Shown in pieces: positions 22,189-28,601 of a DNA stretch of 39,999 nucleotides. The DNA comes from Candidatus Parcubacteria bacterium (GTDB taxonomy: Bacteria > Patescibacteriota > Minisyncoccia > Phycocordibacterales > UBA918): the NCBI GenBank assembly GCA_021767645.1, contig JAASSY010000003.1, positions 1 through 39,999 of the forward strand, read 5' to 3'. The notes beneath the pieces were generated by a model. The model was not told where the DNA came from, did no database searches, and saw nothing but the letters and a program-made list of their open reading frames with translations. The position numbers and the translations under genes are program-made. The stretch's first letter is position 1; each line of letters starts with the position of its first letter.

Positions 22189-22236
22189 AGAGACAAACTT
22201 ACGGTTAGCGCTACCATGGTATCATGCTTTGTACAT

Positions 22237-23940
22237 ATGGCGAGGTACGAGACAGCAGCGGATATAACGCCGAGTACGGCAACAGCCTTGGCCGACTATC
22301 CAGCTCTCTTACAGAAACTGCTGCAGACACGTGGTATCACAACCGCTACAGCCGCCGATCTGTTTTTGTCGCCATCGTATGATGATCATTTGCACGATCC
22401 GTGGCTCCTGCACGATATGTCGGCAGCGGTGGAACGAATTGTGCGAGCGCTGGAAGCAGAGGAAACGATAGTTATCTATAGTGACTACGATTGTGACGGT
22501 ATTCCGGGTGGGGTGGTGCTGCATGATTTATTTCGCTCGCTCGGTCATGAGCATTTTACGAACTATATTCCACACCGGCACTTTGACGGTTTTGGTCTCC
22601 ACGAAAAAGCGGTAACTGAGTTAGCTGCGCAAGGAGCGCAGCTACTGATTACCGTCGACTGTGGCACAACCGACGGTGCGGCGGTTGAGCGAGCTCGAGA
22701 ATTAGGTGTTGACGTTATCATTACCGACCACCATCAACCAGGTGAGCAATTGCCGCCAGCTGTGGCGGTGGTGAATCCACAGGTTGGCAGTAGCTACCCG
22801 TTTCCTGATTTGTGTGGTGCGGCGGTCGCTTTTAAATTAGCCCAGGCAGTCCTCGAAAAAACTGAGCATAACCTGGCACCGGGGCAGGAGAAATGGTGGC
22901 TTGATATGGTGGGGCTGGCCACGGTAGCTGATATGGTGCCGCTTATCGGGGAAAACCGTGTGTTAGCACACTATGGTTTGAAAGTTTTACAAAAAACGCG
23001 TCGTCCTGGTTTGCAGCAATTGCTTCGTAAACAACGGGTGCAATCACGCTATCTCACCGAAGATGATATTGGTTTTACGATTGGGCCGCGGATTAACGCC
23101 GCCTCACGGATGGATACACCCGAAGACGCTTTTTGGATGTTGGCGAGCAGTGACGAATCAGAAGCTGGTTCGTACGTGGCACACCTTGAGTCGCTCAATA
23201 ATGAGCGCAAAGGAATTGTTGCCTCGATGACCCGTGAAGCCCATAAAAAACTCAAGACACAGGAGGTGCCTGAGGTGATTGTTTTAGGTAGTCCAGAATG
23301 GCGACCATCATTAGTTGGTTTGGTAGCTAATAAGTTGGCTGAAGAGTATAGTCGACCGGCCTTTGTCTGGGGTCGCGATGGTAACGGTGTACTGAAAGGT
23401 TCAGCTCGTTCGGGCGGTACAGTAAGTGTGCATGCCATTATGGGCGCAGCCGCTGCAGCGTTTACTGAGTATGGAGGACACCACTTCTCTGGTGGGTTTA
23501 GTGTTAAGGAATCTGCTATTCATACCTTAGCTAAGACATTGGAAACTGCGTACGCTTCACTTGACACAACAGCTGCCGCAGCACCAACTGTCACCATTGA
23601 TCACGTTTGTTCGGTTGATGAGTTGACTGCCGAGGTACTTAAGCTACAGCAACAACTCGCTCCGTTTGGTGTGGCTAACCCAAAACCACTCTATCGCGTC
23701 GAAGATGTTTCCCTTACCGAGGTGTCGTTGTTTGGTAAAGGTAAAGAACACACAAAACTCCAGTTTGCCACCAGTGGAATAGTGGATGAGGCAATTGCGT
23801 TTTTTACTACACCGGAGCAGTTTACCAAGGAGCCGAAGGTTGGGCAGACAGTTGCTTTGGTAGCGCATCTTGAAGAGTCTTTCTTTATGGGGCGTCGACA
23901 AGTTCGTTTACGTCTCGTCGATATTCTGGACACTGTGTGA
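22237..23940 (+). CDS. recJ: Single-stranded-DNA-specific exonuclease RecJ
   Basis: DYDCDG, TVDCG, TDHH, ADMVPL.GENR, PRINAA.R, GSAR, GGH, PFG..NP. Confidence 0.96.
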   Translation: MARYETAADITPSTATALADYPALLQKLLQTRGITTATAADLFLSPSYDDHLHDPWLLHDMSAAVERIVRALEAEETIVIYSDYDCDGIPGGVVLHDLFRSLGHEHFTNYIPHRHFDGFGLHEKAVTELAAQGAQLLITVDCGTTDGAAVERARELGVDVIITDHHQPGEQLPPAVAVVNPQVGSSYPFPDLCGAAVAFKLAQAVLEKTEHNLAPGQEKWWLDMVGLATVADMVPLIGENRVLAHYGLKVLQKTRRPGLQQLLRKQRVQSRYLTEDDIGFTIGPRINAASRMDTPEDAFWMLASSDESEAGSYVAHLESLNNERKGIVASMTREAHKKLKTQEVPEVIVLGSPEWRPSLVGLVANKLAEEYSRPAFVWGRDGNGVLKGSARSGGTVSVHAIMGAAAAAFTEYGGHHFSGGFSVKESAIHTLAKTLETAYASLDTTAAAAPTVTIDHVCSVDELTAEVLKLQQQLAPFGVANPKPLYRVEDVSLTEVSLFGKGKEHTKLQFATSGIVDEAIAFFTTPEQFTKEPKVGQTVALVAHLEESFFMGRRQVRLRLVDILDTV

Positions 23941-23946
23941 TACACT

Positions 23947-23972
23947 AAATACTGCGATATATCGCAGTATTT
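23947..23972. promoter_or_regulatory. Perfect 26-bp palindrome, candidate operator
   Basis: AAATACTGCGATA|TATCGCAGTATTT between extended -10 TGaTACACT (23938-23946) and ATG 23975. Confidence 0.75.
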
Positions 23973-23974
23973 TT

Positions 23975-24385
23975 ATGGCACATATTGGTAAAGAAAAGTT
24001 AGATAAGGGTGAGTTCGAACGACTCTTTGGCCGTTTAGTACAGGTTTGCGCCGATGCGACTGAGCGTGACGCACATCCATTACTACACGGTTTGTTGACC
24101 GATACTGAACAAGTTATGCTCACAAAACGCTTTGCCGCAGTGCTTATGTATCATGAAGGGTACTCGTGCTACGTTGTAGAGCGTACGTTGAAAATCAGTT
24201 CCTCAACAGCACTACGAATACGTAAAGCATATAAGACGGGCCGCTACCGTCCTTTAGTCGCTGTGTTTGATAAAGGAAAAGTTAATCGGGAAGAGTTTTG
24301 GCGTACGTTAGAGGTGTTACTTAGGCTGGGTATGCCGTCGATGGGAAGAGATCGTTGGAAACATGTCCCTGGAATGGGTAGTTAA
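23975..24385 (+). CDS. TrpR/YerC-YecD-like helix-turn-helix protein
   Basis: LLT..E..ML.KR.A, then HTH-like GYS...V...LKISSSTALRI. Confidence 0.8.
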   Translation: MAHIGKEKLDKGEFERLFGRLVQVCADATERDAHPLLHGLLTDTEQVMLTKRFAAVLMYHEGYSCYVVERTLKISSSTALRIRKAYKTGRYRPLVAVFDKGKVNREEFWRTLEVLLRLGMPSMGRDRWKHVPGMGS

Positions 24386-24386
24386 T

Positions 24387-24406
24387 TACTGCGATATATC
24401 GCAGTA
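24387..24406. repeat. Second copy of the palindrome TACTGCGATATATCGCAGTA
   Basis: Identical to 23950-23969; separated from the stop codon by 1 nt. Confidence 0.92.
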
Positions 24407-24456
24407 TAAGCTCATCTCACGCTGTCGCTGTGCGTGAGTGTGGTAAGATGGCTCGC

Positions 24457-24873
24457 ATGCAGGAATACATCATTCATACCGATGGCGGCGCGCGGGGTAA
24501 CCCAGGACCAGCCGGTATCGGTGTAGCCATTTTTGAATCTGACGGTACTGAGATAGCCACGGTATCTGAGTACATTGGTGAAGCTACCAATAATGTCGCC
24601 GAATATACAGCGATTGAACGAGCTTTTGCCAAGCTGCGTACGCTCGCACCAGACACGAAGAACGTGCGCGTTACTGTAAAACTCGATAGTCAGTTAGCTG
24701 AGCGTCAACTCAACGGCGCGTACAAAGTGAAAGACGTCACCCTGAAAACGCACTTTGACCGTATCAAAGCTGGTCTTGATGATTTTGCTAGTGTGAAGTT
24801 TGTCCATGTGCGCCGAGAGAACAATAAACGGGCAGACGAACTGGCGAACGAAGCGATGGATAAAGCCATGTAA
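24457..24873 (+). CDS. rnhA: Ribonuclease HI (archaeal/actinobacterial-like type)
   Basis: TDGGARGNPGPAG, TNNVAEY, DSQL, Y.VK, HVRRE.N.RADELAN. Confidence 0.93.
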   Translation: MQEYIIHTDGGARGNPGPAGIGVAIFESDGTEIATVSEYIGEATNNVAEYTAIERAFAKLRTLAPDTKNVRVTVKLDSQLAERQLNGAYKVKDVTLKTHFDRIKAGLDDFASVKFVHVRRENNKRADELANEAMDKAM

Positions 24874-25516: not shown

Positions 25517-27118
25517 GTGCGGGGACAATTTTTTTATACTGCCATCGTGGCTTTTGCGGTCGGGGTAGGGCTGACTACAGTGTGGTCAACCCCACTTAGT
25601 TTTATAGCGTGGCTCGGAATACTGAGTTTGCTGGCTGCACTGTGTGCCACACGCGCGCACCGAGAAATTAGTTGGCTAGCACTGATGCTTGTTAGTGTCA
25701 GCTTATGTCTGGTCGCTTTGGGTATGTTGCGGGTAGAGCTAGAACCGCCAGTCACTGACCAGAGTTATACAAAGCTTGTTGGTCAGGAAGTCGAGCTTAC
25801 GGGTGTAGTGGTGCGGGAACCAGATCAGCGAGAGCAGACCACACACTTGTACGTCGACGTTGGTGATGTCATGATCTTGGTCTACGCCGAGCGCTACGCA
25901 GCGGTGAATTATGGTGATCAGGTGACACTGGTTGGCGAGCTTGATAGACCAGAAGCATTTACAACTGAGCTCGGGCGTACGTTTGATTATCCTGGTTATC
26001 TACAAGCTCGCGGAGTGGGCTACACAATGTCGTTTGCTGATGTGGTGGTAAAAGACATCAACCAAGCGTCCAGTCTGCTCCACCACTTGTACCAGGTAAA
26101 AGGTGACTTTATGGACAGGTTGGAGCAAGTTTTACCTGAGCCACAGGTGGGGTTAGGCGAGGGTTTGTTACTCGGTGTGAAGCAGGCACTGGGTGAGCAG
26201 TACGAACAAGTGTTTCGCACCACTGGCCTCATGCACATTGTCGTACTTTCAGGCTATAACGTGATGCTGGTGGTCACCTTCTTCATGTACGTGTTGGCCT
26301 ACATTCTCCCGTTTCGCTGGCGCCTCGTGGTGGGTGTGGTGGCGATTGCTGGTTTCGCACTACTCGTCGGTCTTTCTGCCACTGTAGTGAGGGCAAGTAT
26401 TATGGCGAGTTTGCTTCTGTTGCTGCGTTTTACTGGTAATACCTATCACATACTCCGGGCGCTCTGTGTGGCGGGAGTAGTGATGCTGCTATTGAACCCA
26501 TATCTCTTGCTGTATGATATTGGTTTCCAGCTGTCTTTTATGGCAACGCTCGGACTGATTCTGTTTGCTGAACGAGTGTCTGACTATCTCACTTTTATGC
26601 CGGCTTGGCTTGGTTTGCGTGAATTTCTCACTGCTACTTTGGTGACGCAAGTATTTGTTTTGCCACTGCTGTTGTTTCATATTGGTGAGGTGTCGCTGGT
26701 GTCTGTGATTGTGAATGTTCTGGTACTGCCTGCGGTGCCGGTGGCGATGTTGCTTACCTTTGCTGTGGGGCTTATCTCGTACCTGTCTACTTCGTTAGCG
26801 TTAGCGTTGGCCTACCTGCCTTACGTAGCACTCACGTACATACTCGCGGTAGCTCGTTGGTTCGCCGCAGTACCGTTTGCGGCCATAACTGTGCCCGAGT
26901 TTTCTTGGTGGGCGTTTGGGTTGGTATATGGACTGATTGTGCTCGGAGCTGTGGGGTTATTACACCAACGCGAGTCAGTATCTGTCAGTACTGGTGTCAC
27001 GGACGATACGCTGCCTGACGTTTCGCACTGGACAATCGAGTGTGAGTCTGAGGTGCAGCAAAAAGCGGCCTCTTCATCTAAGGCCGCTTCAGCAGAGACA
27101 CCTGTCTTTTTTCGTTAG
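25517..27118 (+). CDS. comEC: ComEC DNA-uptake channel, OB + competence domains only
   Basis: FDY..YL, G..HIVVLSGYNV, RASIM, NP..LYDIGFQLSF.AT, multiple TM segments; no MBL domain. Confidence 0.93.
   Translation: MRGQFFYTAIVAFAVGVGLTTVWSTPLSFIAWLGILSLLAALCATRAHREISWLALMLVSVSLCLVALGMLRVELEPPVTDQSYTKLVGQEVELTGVVVREPDQREQTTHLYVDVGDVMILVYAERYAAVNYGDQVTLVGELDRPEAFTTELGRTFDYPGYLQARGVGYTMSFADVVVKDINQASSLLHHLYQVKGDFMDRLEQVLPEPQVGLGEGLLLGVKQALGEQYEQVFRTTGLMHIVVLSGYNVMLVVTFFMYVLAYILPFRWRLVVGVVAIAGFALLVGLSATVVRASIMASLLLLLRFTGNTYHILRALCVAGVVMLLLNPYLLLYDIGFQLSFMATLGLILFAERVSDYLTFMPAWLGLREFLTATLVTQVFVLPLLLFHIGEVSLVSVIVNVLVLPAVPVAMLLTFAVGLISYLSTSLALALAYLPYVALTYILAVARWFAAVPFAAITVPEFSWWAFGLVYGLIVLGAVGLLHQRESVSVSTGVTDDTLPDVSHWTIECESEVQQKAASSSKAASAETPVFFR
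27060..27089 (-). terminator. SOD terminator embedded in the comEC 3' coding end
   Basis: Minus strand AAGCGGCCT-loop-AGGCCGCTTTTT. Confidence 0.6.
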
Positions 27119-27687
27119 ATGCGGTTTGCGACTACCTCCCAATTGAGGTTGGCAAAGAAGGCTTCCACGTATTGCATTTTTTCTGATGGTGGATGGTCCA
27201 GCATGTACGAGTGTTCCCACATATCGAGCGCTAATACAATGTCAACATCAGCAAGTTGGCCGAGTTGTTGTTCGTCTACCCACGTGCAGACGAGTTGGTT
27301 TTCGGCGCGATCGATGTACGCCATTACCCAACCGACACCACGAGTTTTGGCAATGAGACGAAATTGCTCCACGAACGCATCGAAAGAACCATATTGGTCT
27401 TCGACCATAGTTTTGAAAGGTCCGTCTGGGCATGGTTGCGCACCACCTTCAAACTGGGTGAAGTAGTACTCGTGGTTTTTCATACCACCAAACTCAAAGC
27501 CAAGTCTGCGGCGCATCTCGGCGATAGCGTAGGCATTTTGTTCTGGTTCATTGCTGTAGGCAGCAATCCGCTCGTGAATCAAATTGACGTGTTTGACGTA
27601 ACCTTGGTAGAGACCAATATGTTCGTCGATAGTTTGTTTGGAAATCCCTGTTAGCTCTGGGATGGTAAAAGTTTTTGGTTCGTACAT
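27115..27687 (-). CDS. Fe/Mn superoxide dismutase family protein
   Basis: H..LY.GYV, GGMKNHEYYF, G.GW, LDMWEHSY, NLNW; ligands H/H/D/H are present. Confidence 0.9.
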   Translation of the reverse strand: MYEPKTFTIPELTGISKQTIDEHIGLYQGYVKHVNLIHERIAAYSNEPEQNAYAIAEMRRRLGFEFGGMKNHEYYFTQFEGGAQPCPDGPFKTMVEDQYGSFDAFVEQFRLIAKTRGVGWVMAYIDRAENQLVCTWVDEQQLGQLADVDIVLALDMWEHSYMLDHPPSEKMQYVEAFFANLNWEVVANRI

Positions 27688-27737
27688 AGTCAATGAAGTG
27701 TAATGAGTAACTCGTCATGAGTGTATCATAGTGATAT

Positions 27738-28601
27738 ATGGATGCAGAGGAGCGAGTCTGGGCACGGGTAGTGGTTGTGAGTTTATTATTGGTGGTAGCT
27801 GGCACCATTTGGCTGCTTCCACGGCTGTTGCCGACACCACCGCAGTACCTAGAAGTGCACGTGCTTGATGTTGGGCAAGGTGATGCTATTTTGCTTGAGA
27901 GTCCAAGCGGGCAACAGATGTTGATTGATGGTGGTCGCAATAACCAAGTGCTTCGTTCGCTAGCGGCCGAGCTTGCTTTCTTTGATCGGACACTCGACTT
28001 CGTCGTTGCGACCCATCCTGACGCTGATCATATTGGTGGGCTGGTCGATGTGCTACAGCGGTACACGGTAGAGACTGTATTGGTCACAGACAACCAGAGT
28101 GACACCACCGCTCATGCGGCGTTTACCGCAGCGATTGCTGCTGAGAACGCTGAACGACTAGTGCCCCGTCGGGGGCAGACCATTGACCTCGGGGCTGGTG
28201 TGCTCGTAACAGTGCTCTGGCCAGAGACGAACGCGGCTCGTCTGGAGAGTAACGCTGCATCGGTGGTGTTACATGTCCACTACGGTGAAACGGCCTTTTT
28301 GCTTACTGGTGATAGTCCAAAACGAATCGAAGAATATTTAGTACTGACGTACGGTGAGTATTTAGCGAGTGATGTGTTAAAGGTGGGGCACCACGGCTCA
28401 CGCACGTCAACGGCTGAACTATTTTTAGCAGAAGTTAGACCACAGTACGCAGTTATTTCTGCCGGGGCAGATAATCGCTATGGTCACCCACACGTGGAGG
28501 TAACCGACGCACTCTTTAACGCGGGAGTAACCACCTTTACGACGGCTGAGCAGGGTACGGTATCGTTTATCAGTGACGGTATGACCGTGACACCATACTA
28601 A
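27738..28601 (+). CDS. ComEC-type metallo-beta-lactamase-fold nuclease, stand-alone and membrane-anchored
   Basis: DVGQGDA, LIDGG, THPDADHIGG, LLTGD, KVGHHGS, N.YGHP. Confidence 0.93.
   Translation: MDAEERVWARVVVVSLLLVVAGTIWLLPRLLPTPPQYLEVHVLDVGQGDAILLESPSGQQMLIDGGRNNQVLRSLAAELAFFDRTLDFVVATHPDADHIGGLVDVLQRYTVETVLVTDNQSDTTAHAAFTAAIAAENAERLVPRRGQTIDLGAGVLVTVLWPETNAARLESNAASVVLHVHYGETAFLLTGDSPKRIEEYLVLTYGEYLASDVLKVGHHGSRTSTAELFLAEVRPQYAVISAGADNRYGHPHVEVTDALFNAGVTTFTTAEQGTVSFISDGMTVTPY

Follow-up and report, generated by a model that had tools for sequence, protein, structure and literature searches.

TrpR and HisR (YerC) bind 20-bp palindromes and often regulate their own genes (PMC9413887). 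The part of that source consulted here describes the HisR motifs as 20-bp palindromes that are lineage-specific, places the regulator's own site before its gene in about half of the genomes, names his genes and transporters as the targets, and reports no site downstream of the gene (PMC9413887). Here we analyzed a 39,999-nt stretch of Candidatus Parcubacteria bacterium (assembly GCA_021767645.1, contig JAASSY010000003.1, positions 1–39,999; hereafter the window), in which a gene for a predicted TrpR/YerC-like helix-turn-helix protein lies between recJ and rnhA and is bracketed by two copies of one palindrome. The locus is a clean example of a conserved layout, with such a gene placed between two copies of what is very probably its private operator. 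Most likely, the protein represses its own promoter at the upstream operator (O1), and the stop-proximal operator and hairpin (O2) closes and insulates the unit; mobility of the unit is unlikely. A description of this layout was not found in the full-text literature searched, and work beyond that library may exist.

Two palindromes around a TrpR/YerC-like gene

The 21-mer TACTGCGATATATCGCAGTAT occurs at positions 23950–23970 and 24387–24407 of the window; such a pair arose in 0 of 100 dinucleotide-preserving shuffles. A direct-repeat alignment of the two copies extends over 25 nt and contains one mismatch. The original prediction, made from the sequence alone, had put the first copy inside a 26-bp perfect palindrome between a −10-like hexamer and the ATG, and the second immediately 3′ of the stop codon; both placements were confirmed, the second copy starting one base past the TAA. 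It had also described a site-gene-site unit between recJ and rnhA with no trp genes nearby. The Pfam domains of both neighbors agree with the former, and no trp genes were found within ∼4 kb, where the neighbors are pgk, YbaK-like, Nudix, HIT, comEC and sodA; neither trp nor his genes are adjacent to the repressor gene. The possibility that the palindrome is a generic genome-wide repeat was checked in the whole assembly, which is 605,227 bases in size, consists of 43 contigs and is 93.7% complete. Even with up to 4 mismatches allowed, the 20-mer core was found in two places only, with no third copy of the palindrome in the assembly; therefore, TACTGCGATATATCGCAGTAT is not a genome-wide repeat. 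Perfect palindromes with arms of at least 8 nt number 42 in the same assembly.

The protein was identified through its relatives and its predicted structure. Among 20 aligned homologues from related genomes, 14 matched Trp_repressor (PF01371), the best with an E-value of 1.1e-8; P0002, which is 53% identical to the window protein, has a precomputed PF01371 match. Residues E45, K51, R52, S75 and T78 are invariant in this alignment, and its profile matches the YerC-type structures 3KOR, 3G1C and 3FRW with E-values of 7e-6 to 7e-5. The AlphaFold2 (AF2) model of the window protein contains seven helices, with a predicted local distance difference test (pLDDT) score of 83.6. Foldseek ranks 1–24 are all TrpR or TrpR-like, with target-normalized template-modeling scores of 0.60–0.78 and probabilities of 0.87–1.0; both the model and the ranking give an all-helical TrpR fold with a helix-turn-helix. 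The predicted recognition helix covers approximately residues 75–87 (ISSSTALRIRKAY). Different from the solved TrpR-like proteins, which are ∼100 residues in size, the family has a conserved C-terminal extension of ∼40 residues. At family level, the protein is placed as a divergent TrpR/YerC-like helix-turn-helix protein, and a dimer would agree with the perfect two-fold symmetry that the sites display. No recombinase, transposase or other catalytic domain was found in Pfam scans of the window protein and its relatives.

A profile search of 1.84 billion representatives returned 2677 clusters at a cut-off of E ≤ 1e-3, of which 1312 remain at E ≤ 1e-10 and 149 at E ≤ 1e-30. Stand-alone proteins of 130–150 residues make up nearly all of the matches, and related loci carry the labels Candidatus Saccharibacteria, Zambryskibacteria and Gottesmanbacteria. 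When the window protein alone was used as the query, a metagenome scan returned no relative. Many genus genomes also contain a second, weaker class of family-related open reading frames (ORFs) of ∼150 residues (E 1e-13 to 1e-7), which was not found in the window genome, G000.

Private palindrome pairs across the family

The bracket layout is a family trait, conserved across the genus and in distant Patescibacteria. At least one family match (E ≤ 1e-5) was present in 74 of 128 genus genomes, with one to five in each. In 99 strongly matching genus loci, we compared the 110 nt upstream of the start codon with the 110 nt downstream of the stop codon; in 80 of the 99, the two flanks have an exact word of 14 nt or more (14–30 nt) in common, almost always a perfect palindrome. 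In the control, flanks taken from different loci shared at least 14 nt in 79 of 2000 cases, which are related loci with the same site. In distant phylum members from other families, at least 12 nt are shared in 17 of 21 loci, counting one locus (L144) in which the word is far from the gene and one (L141) in which it is a direct repeat with no clean palindrome. The same holds for 13 of 14 metagenome and named-genome loci, a set that includes some repeats of its own members and of the genus loci above. Like the window gene, the paralogue on contig C33 of the same genome is also bracketed, by AACCTTTCAATCGATTGAAAGGTT.

The palindrome centre could be set in 79 loci. The median arm is 13 nt for the upstream copy and 14 nt for the downstream copy; the distance from the upstream centre to the ATG clusters at 11–17 nt and at 27 nt, and the distance from the stop to the downstream centre at 7–17 nt. 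The two centres are 415–553 bp apart, with a mode of 445–447.

The sequences of the sites are private to the loci. As many as 54 distinct 11-nt half-sites occur in the 79 loci, and all 33 within-genome paralogue pairs differ at no fewer than 3 of 10 half-site positions. The register of the half-site is fixed: it contains one centre triplet (AAC, GAT, GAA, AAT or TAT), one variable base and one 5-nt core, such as GTACT, GGAGT or GAAAG, and GCAGT in the window. O1 and O2 agree in at least 84% of loci through position 11 from the centre, identity at positions 1–7 being partly due to the selection of loci; past position 13, the agreement is near chance. The shared core is therefore 22–26 bp, the size of a TrpR-type operator.

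It had been proposed that each paralogue would be flanked by its own distinct palindrome pair, and that the pair would co-vary with the recognition helix. The 80 bracketed loci, paralogues and orthologues alike, agree with the first part. For the second part, mutual information was calculated and compared with shuffles. Residue 76, which stands second in the predicted recognition helix, is the one most tied to core positions 6–9 of the half-site (z = 5.8, 9.6, 8.4 and 6.0), so that the pair does track the helix; helix-turn-helix residues 65, 69, 79 and 80 come next. A G[AG]AC core is present in every one of the six K76 or R76 proteins, and GGAGT in 6 of the 11 E76 or Q76 proteins. Centre positions 1, 3 and 4 covary with N-terminal residues 2–5 (z up to 44), which may be clade signal. 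The nearest same-context relative (L155/L156) is 63% and 64% identical to the window in RecJ and RnhA, respectively, and 45% in the repressor; its site keeps the CGATATATCG centre and has GTACT arms, and its residue 76 is proline versus serine in the window. In another locus, L166, the site is a hybrid in which one arm is GCAGT. The 12 recJ-context members, one of which comes from another family of the order, have no fewer than 10 different palindromes among them; therefore, specificity changed in place. These observations point to co-evolution of protein and sites in place, giving each member a private specificity.

Further copies of the private palindromes occur elsewhere in the genomes. In the window genome, the palindrome of the C33 paralogue recurs upstream of dnaG as a perfect match and, with one mismatch each, in the gap between a Na/Ca exchanger gene and truB and in the gap between a KH-protein gene and trmD. 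Three recJ-context relatives have 1, 1 and 4 further copies of their private palindromes; extra copies are located 3′ of tig-clpP (within a 40-nt palindrome), 3′ of mutY (within a 34-nt palindrome) and inside the ORFs of rnhB, tsaC, leuS and mutY. Eight further genome-site sets contain 1–6 extra perfect or near-perfect copies, and several of these copies lie in frame, within rsmI, DUF2238, rnhB, leuS, argS, truB and murD. The peptides encoded by in-frame 20-bp sites include NSTVNRT, NSTIYRT and FSTVNST; the loci include rsmI (L181/L191), DUF2238 (L182/L192), rnhB (L170/L183) and leuS (L172/L185). The rsmI and DUF2238 sites are at the same codon positions in two genomes, each with its own genome's variant (CGGTTAACCG versus CTGTTAACAG), and in L181 the rsmI ORF contains a 40-nt perfect palindrome. 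As they are internal to ORFs, such sites could affect transcription only as roadblocks. Insertion of a fixed-length mobile palindrome into these ORFs was considered and rejected, because the length differences between site-bearing ORFs and their orthologues vary (0, 1, 3, 3, 4, 13 and 20 residues).

Two further observations concern palindromes in the window genome. The perfect palindrome TGAACATACCATGGTATGTTCA occurs five times (C7:3264, C17:1489, C27:13374, C29:21124 and C34:6444), with a near-copy upstream of trmD on C24; the set looks like the regulon of another regulator. On contig C35 (16000–20500), two extra ORFs and one C33-type palindrome with 4 mismatches (C35:18502) lie between the S10 and L3 genes, where the usual ribosomal operon order is interrupted.

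Promoter side, stop side and competing explanations

The coordinates of the window features are given in Table 1. The recJ stop codon (23938–23940) adjoins the putative −10 box of the repressor gene. In homologous recJ- and dprA-context loci, a TATAAT-like hexamer occupies the corresponding position, flush with the left arm of O1, with the centre 11–17 nt before the ATG; the transcript is therefore expected to start within O1. In tatD-context loci, O1 is located between two divergent extended −10 boxes, each 6–8 nt before an ATG, and one site should therefore control both leaderless genes. Going by these predicted boxes, O1 takes the positions of a classical repressor site. A simple sigma-70 scan, in which a −35 box was required, returned 0 sites, and a terminator scan returned just one unrelated minus-strand site, inside the repressor gene.

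Table 1. Features of the window around the repressor gene (positions are those of the window)
Feature	Position	Strand	Basis or remark
recJ, single-strand DNA exonuclease	22216–23940	+	Pfam DHH, DHHA1, RecJ_OB
Putative −10 hexamer TACACT of the repressor gene, with TGTGA in front (extended −10-like)	23941–23946	+	predicted from sequence
O1, 26-bp perfect palindrome AAATACTGCGATATATCGCAGTATTT	23947–23972		sequence; centre 15 nt before ATG
Gene for TrpR/YerC-like helix-turn-helix protein, 136 residues	23975–24385	+	Pfam on relatives, AF2, Foldseek, profile
O2, 20-bp perfect palindrome TACTGCGATATATCGCAGTA	24387–24406		sequence; TAA stop at 24383–24385
Putative extended −10 of rnhA, TGGTAAGAT	24441–24449	+	predicted from sequence; 7 nt before ATG 24457
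RNase H gene (rnhA-like)	24457–24873 (alternative start 24448)	+	Pfam RVT_3, RNase_H
ComEC competence domain	25517–27118	+	
sodA, Fe/Mn superoxide dismutase	27115–27693	−	
Metallo-beta-lactamase domain protein	27738–28601	+	

On the rnhA side, the position of TGGTAAGAT suggests that the rnhA transcript is leaderless. The same geometry is present in relatives, in which an extended −10 is located 6–9 nt before the ATG; an rnhA orthologue is present in 59 of 61 genus genomes, and in relatives recJ directly abuts or overlaps rnhA. More generally, extended −10 boxes 6–9 nt before start codons, with no Shine-Dalgarno sequence, were seen in the window (24441–24459), in L022 and in many tatD-context loci, which suggests that leaderless transcripts are common in the genus for rnhA, tatD and the repressor genes. 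Further downstream in the window (25517–28601), ComEC appears to be split, with the reverse-strand sodA between its two parts.

On the stop side, O2 occurs with both co-directional and convergent downstream genes. The self-symmetry at position 14 is 0.71 for O2 versus 0.57 for O1, and ∼0.6 versus ∼0.4 at positions 16–18; since the symmetry of O2 outlasts the core that it shares with O1, O2 is, across the family, the tip of a longer, locus-specific hairpin. As RNA, O1 has a predicted fold of −13.3 kcal/mol (z −5.2) followed by a run of U, and the O2 copy also forms a stable hairpin (z −4.5). A Rho RNA-binding domain above the Pfam cut-off was found in 0 of 41 genus genomes; 9 of 14 controls were matched. 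In L076 (genome G119), the private palindrome ATATGTCGATTAATCGACATAT has a third copy in the interval from the repressor gene to rnhA, where it follows a canonical terminator and precedes the rnhA promoter.

On balance, we lean towards an autorepressor with O1 as promoter operator and O2 as a stop-proximal roadblock and terminator. We infer that the protein, presumably a dimeric TrpR/YerC-type repressor, binds both palindromes, which are its sole detectable targets in the window genome. O1 fills the interval between the −10 box and the start codon; protein bound there would silence the promoter of the repressor gene and, in addition, would stop read-through from recJ. O2 would act as a protein-reinforced stop, combining roadblock and hairpin, that closes the transcription unit; rnhA, for which a separate leaderless promoter is predicted, would thereby be shielded from transcription that arrives through recJ or through the repressor gene. 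The original prediction had suggested double-operator autorepression by looping, possibly with gating of rnhA. Its recognition of both sites and its autoregulation are supported by the 80 of 99 bracketed loci and by residue 76. The gating of rnhA is possible but weak in the window, where O2 is centred 51–60 nt ahead of the rnhA start, a short way upstream of the putative extended −10; this distance ranges from 18 to 145 nt in other recJ-context loci.

Several points weigh against an autorepressor that acts at both ends of its gene. A regulator of itself only seems pointless, and a further target may lie in the ∼6% of the genome that is unassembled. No shared word of at least 14 nt was found in 19 of the 99 genus loci; these include two contig ends (L019 and L130), one masked upstream region (L007), one broken gene (L018) and several partial matches of 10–13 nt. 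Searched alone, the window protein gave a sub-threshold HTH_23 match only in Pfam, with no match to PF01371 at E ≤ 0.1, and the Foldseek E-values are weak (0.05–0.7); the label 'TrpR-like' thus stands for the family, on the PF01371 matches, the 3KOR profile match and Foldseek, and not for the window protein by itself. The covariation of residue 76 is partly clade signal: among the few phylogenetically independent pairs, K/R agree in 3 of 3 and E/Q in ∼2 of 4, with none opposite (p ≥ 0.25). O2 of the window has 10-nt arms only, with no extended hairpin and no clear T-run after it, and the terminator side is therefore weakest at this very locus.

Other explanations share part of the same evidence. 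Dimers on O1 and O2 might associate into a tetramer and loop the 437-bp gene, with O2 having no role in termination; this is compatible with autorepression at O1 and, though unlikely, deserves some weight. The identical operators are a few hundred base pairs apart in all 79 loci, the conserved C-terminal extension could mediate the association, and lac provides a precedent with auxiliary operators ∼400 bp away. However, the O1–O2 spacing has no clear helical phasing (Rayleigh p ∼0.05 at 10.5–10.7 bp, over loci that are not independent, a value not counted as evidence); moreover, a loop anchor need neither hug the stop codon nor sit in a longer locus-specific hairpin, and relatives contain solitary extra sites far from any partner. 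A further explanation is a site-specific architectural protein with a non-transcriptional task, which bridges or marks few sites or protects palindromes and uses the bracket only to set its own level. Relatives have 3–8 sites per genome, many of them in ORFs at conserved codons (rsmI, DUF2238 and rnhB), where classical promoter control is impossible, and the neighbors are often DNA-metabolism genes (recJ, rnhA, tatD, dprA and topA). We nevertheless consider such a protein quite improbable, given that the window genome has no sites beyond the bracket, the O1 positions fit promoter occlusion and bridging is without support. A purely RNA-level function, with the 5′ hairpin as recJ terminator, the 3′ hairpin as terminator or stabilizer of the gene and no binding by the protein, would agree with the stable folds, with the U-run after O1 and with the A-runs and T-runs that flank many family palindromes, as in canonical bidirectional terminators of the genome. 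It would leave unexplained why the two hairpins are identical, why the identity ends at ∼11–13 nt and why the site sequence tracks residue 76; in addition, O1 of the tatD context is upstream of both leaderless starts and would hence not be transcribed. We regard this explanation as hardly probable at all.

The original prediction had also raised a minimal mobile cassette, with the palindromes as recombination ends recognized by the encoded protein and one palindrome left behind upon excision. This is very unlikely in light of the genomic contexts. The largest cluster (36 loci) has a divergent tatD, with metG or a hydrolase gene downstream; recJ-X-rnhA accounts for 12 loci and dprA-X-topA for 11–12. 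On an IQ-TREE tree of 95 proteins, the tatD context changes once, the recJ context twice and the dprA-topA context once (support 100), compared to 11–19 changes after shuffling. Clade-specific contexts of this kind argue against mobility, as do the in-place change of palindromes among the recJ-context members, the fixed distances of O1 from promoter boxes and the lack of a catalytic domain. When recJ-rnhA junctions were sampled through rnhA, the gene was present in 3 of 24; the remaining 21 are empty, some with recJ and rnhA overlapping, and the closest RnhA relatives are without the gene, as a cassette would have it. A solo palindrome, degenerate and family-like, was found at one of these 21 (L033), and the other 20 have none, so the expected empty junction keeping one palindrome was met with only once. 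The contexts are heterogeneous across the phylum, and there is weak similarity to N-terminal helix-turn-helix domains of transposases, which also favor a cassette; in NCBIfam, the window protein gave chance-level matches only, to the IS630 N-terminus and Cbp1 (E ∼0.02). No relative was confirmed in viral contigs among 32 pattern-match stretches, and no alternative joint or variant of the locus was found in the contigs of the probable source DNA run, in which rare forms would be missed; among sequencing runs, this was the only one listed with the locus, and no RNA run was among them. Target-site duplication was rejected as the origin of the repeat, because the repeat tracks the protein and keeps a fixed register to the promoter. 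The recJ-rnhA junction is variable in other ways as well: six junctions (L034, L038, L039, L047, L049 and L050) hold 260–310 bp with unrelated small ORFs and terminator-like hairpins, the repressor gene being absent.

Meaning and comparison with known systems

Patescibacteria have few recognizable regulators, and their transcription control and termination are almost unstudied. Here, a large family (the 1312 clusters at E ≤ 1e-10) has a target site that can be read from the DNA on both sides of the gene, which yields dozens of natural candidate protein–operator pairs, 54 half-sites in 79 loci, without experiment. The drift of specificity in a repressor with few targets, a possible replacement of Rho by protein roadblocks and a possible recognition code between residue 76 and the core bases all become testable, and the pairs could serve as orthogonal parts in synthetic circuits. 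More speculatively, and with more doubt than confidence, we suggest that Patescibacteria, in this genus of which Rho appears to be lacking, use fast-evolving TrpR-like proteins as private, sequence-specific roadblocks or terminators at their own gene ends, at a few gene boundaries and at in-frame sites of housekeeping genes, the protein and all of its palindromes changing together and symmetrically. If so, nature would have supplied in this family a collection of mutually orthogonal repressor-operator pairs whose recognition code can be read.

Among mobile systems, the repetitive extragenic palindromes (REPs) with their REP-associated tyrosine transposases (RAYTs), and the Xer-dependent dif modules, resemble the family in that a gene is flanked by its own palindromes, with extra copies in relatives. 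Different from REP/RAYT systems, the window protein has no HUH/Y1 transposase domain (no match to Y1_Tnp or another catalytic family), and the palindrome is present in 2 copies only. Insertion sequences and miniature inverted-repeat transposable elements also fit poorly: there is no transposase domain, the contexts are clade-specific and the palindrome pair is unique to each locus. Cassettes that share a genome carry different palindromes, every one of the 33 pairs differing at 3 or more of 10 half-site positions, so that a common Xer-type recombinase cannot serve them all.

Like the C proteins and C-boxes of restriction-modification systems, the family members would be small helix-turn-helix autoregulators with diversified specificities that do not cross-talk. 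C proteins belong to another fold family, however; their sites are upstream only, and they are linked to restriction-modification genes, which are absent here. CcpA, CodY and PurR are global roadblock regulators that are not known to bracket their own genes. The family shares with their roadblocks, and with protein-dependent termination, sites within or at the ends of transcription units, positions at which blocking elongation is all that bound protein can do; unlike in those regulons, each paralogue has a private site. In lac, gal and deo, one repressor uses two operators a few hundred base pairs apart, and the family also has two putative operators at such a distance. The second one, in contrast, stands 3′ of the very gene that encodes the regulator, embedded in a hairpin, and the spacing gives no phasing signal.

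The closest comparisons are within the TrpR fold. Similar to E. coli TrpR, the family has an all-helical TrpR-like fold, a putative ∼20-bp palindromic operator and, as predicted here, autoregulation; the half-sites, with a core of GNACT type and often a GTTAAC centre, are presumably also akin to the E. coli trp operator. Compared to E. coli TrpR, the family differs in its extra ∼40-residue C-terminal segment, in having no trp genes nearby, in the second operator right after the stop codon and in its dozens of private specificities. By sequence profile, HisR (the YerC/YecD branch; 3KOR, 3FRW and 3G1C) is closest to the family. Different from HisR, the predicted targets of the family are the two ends of the gene itself, to which relatives add the ends of other genes and ORF-internal sites.

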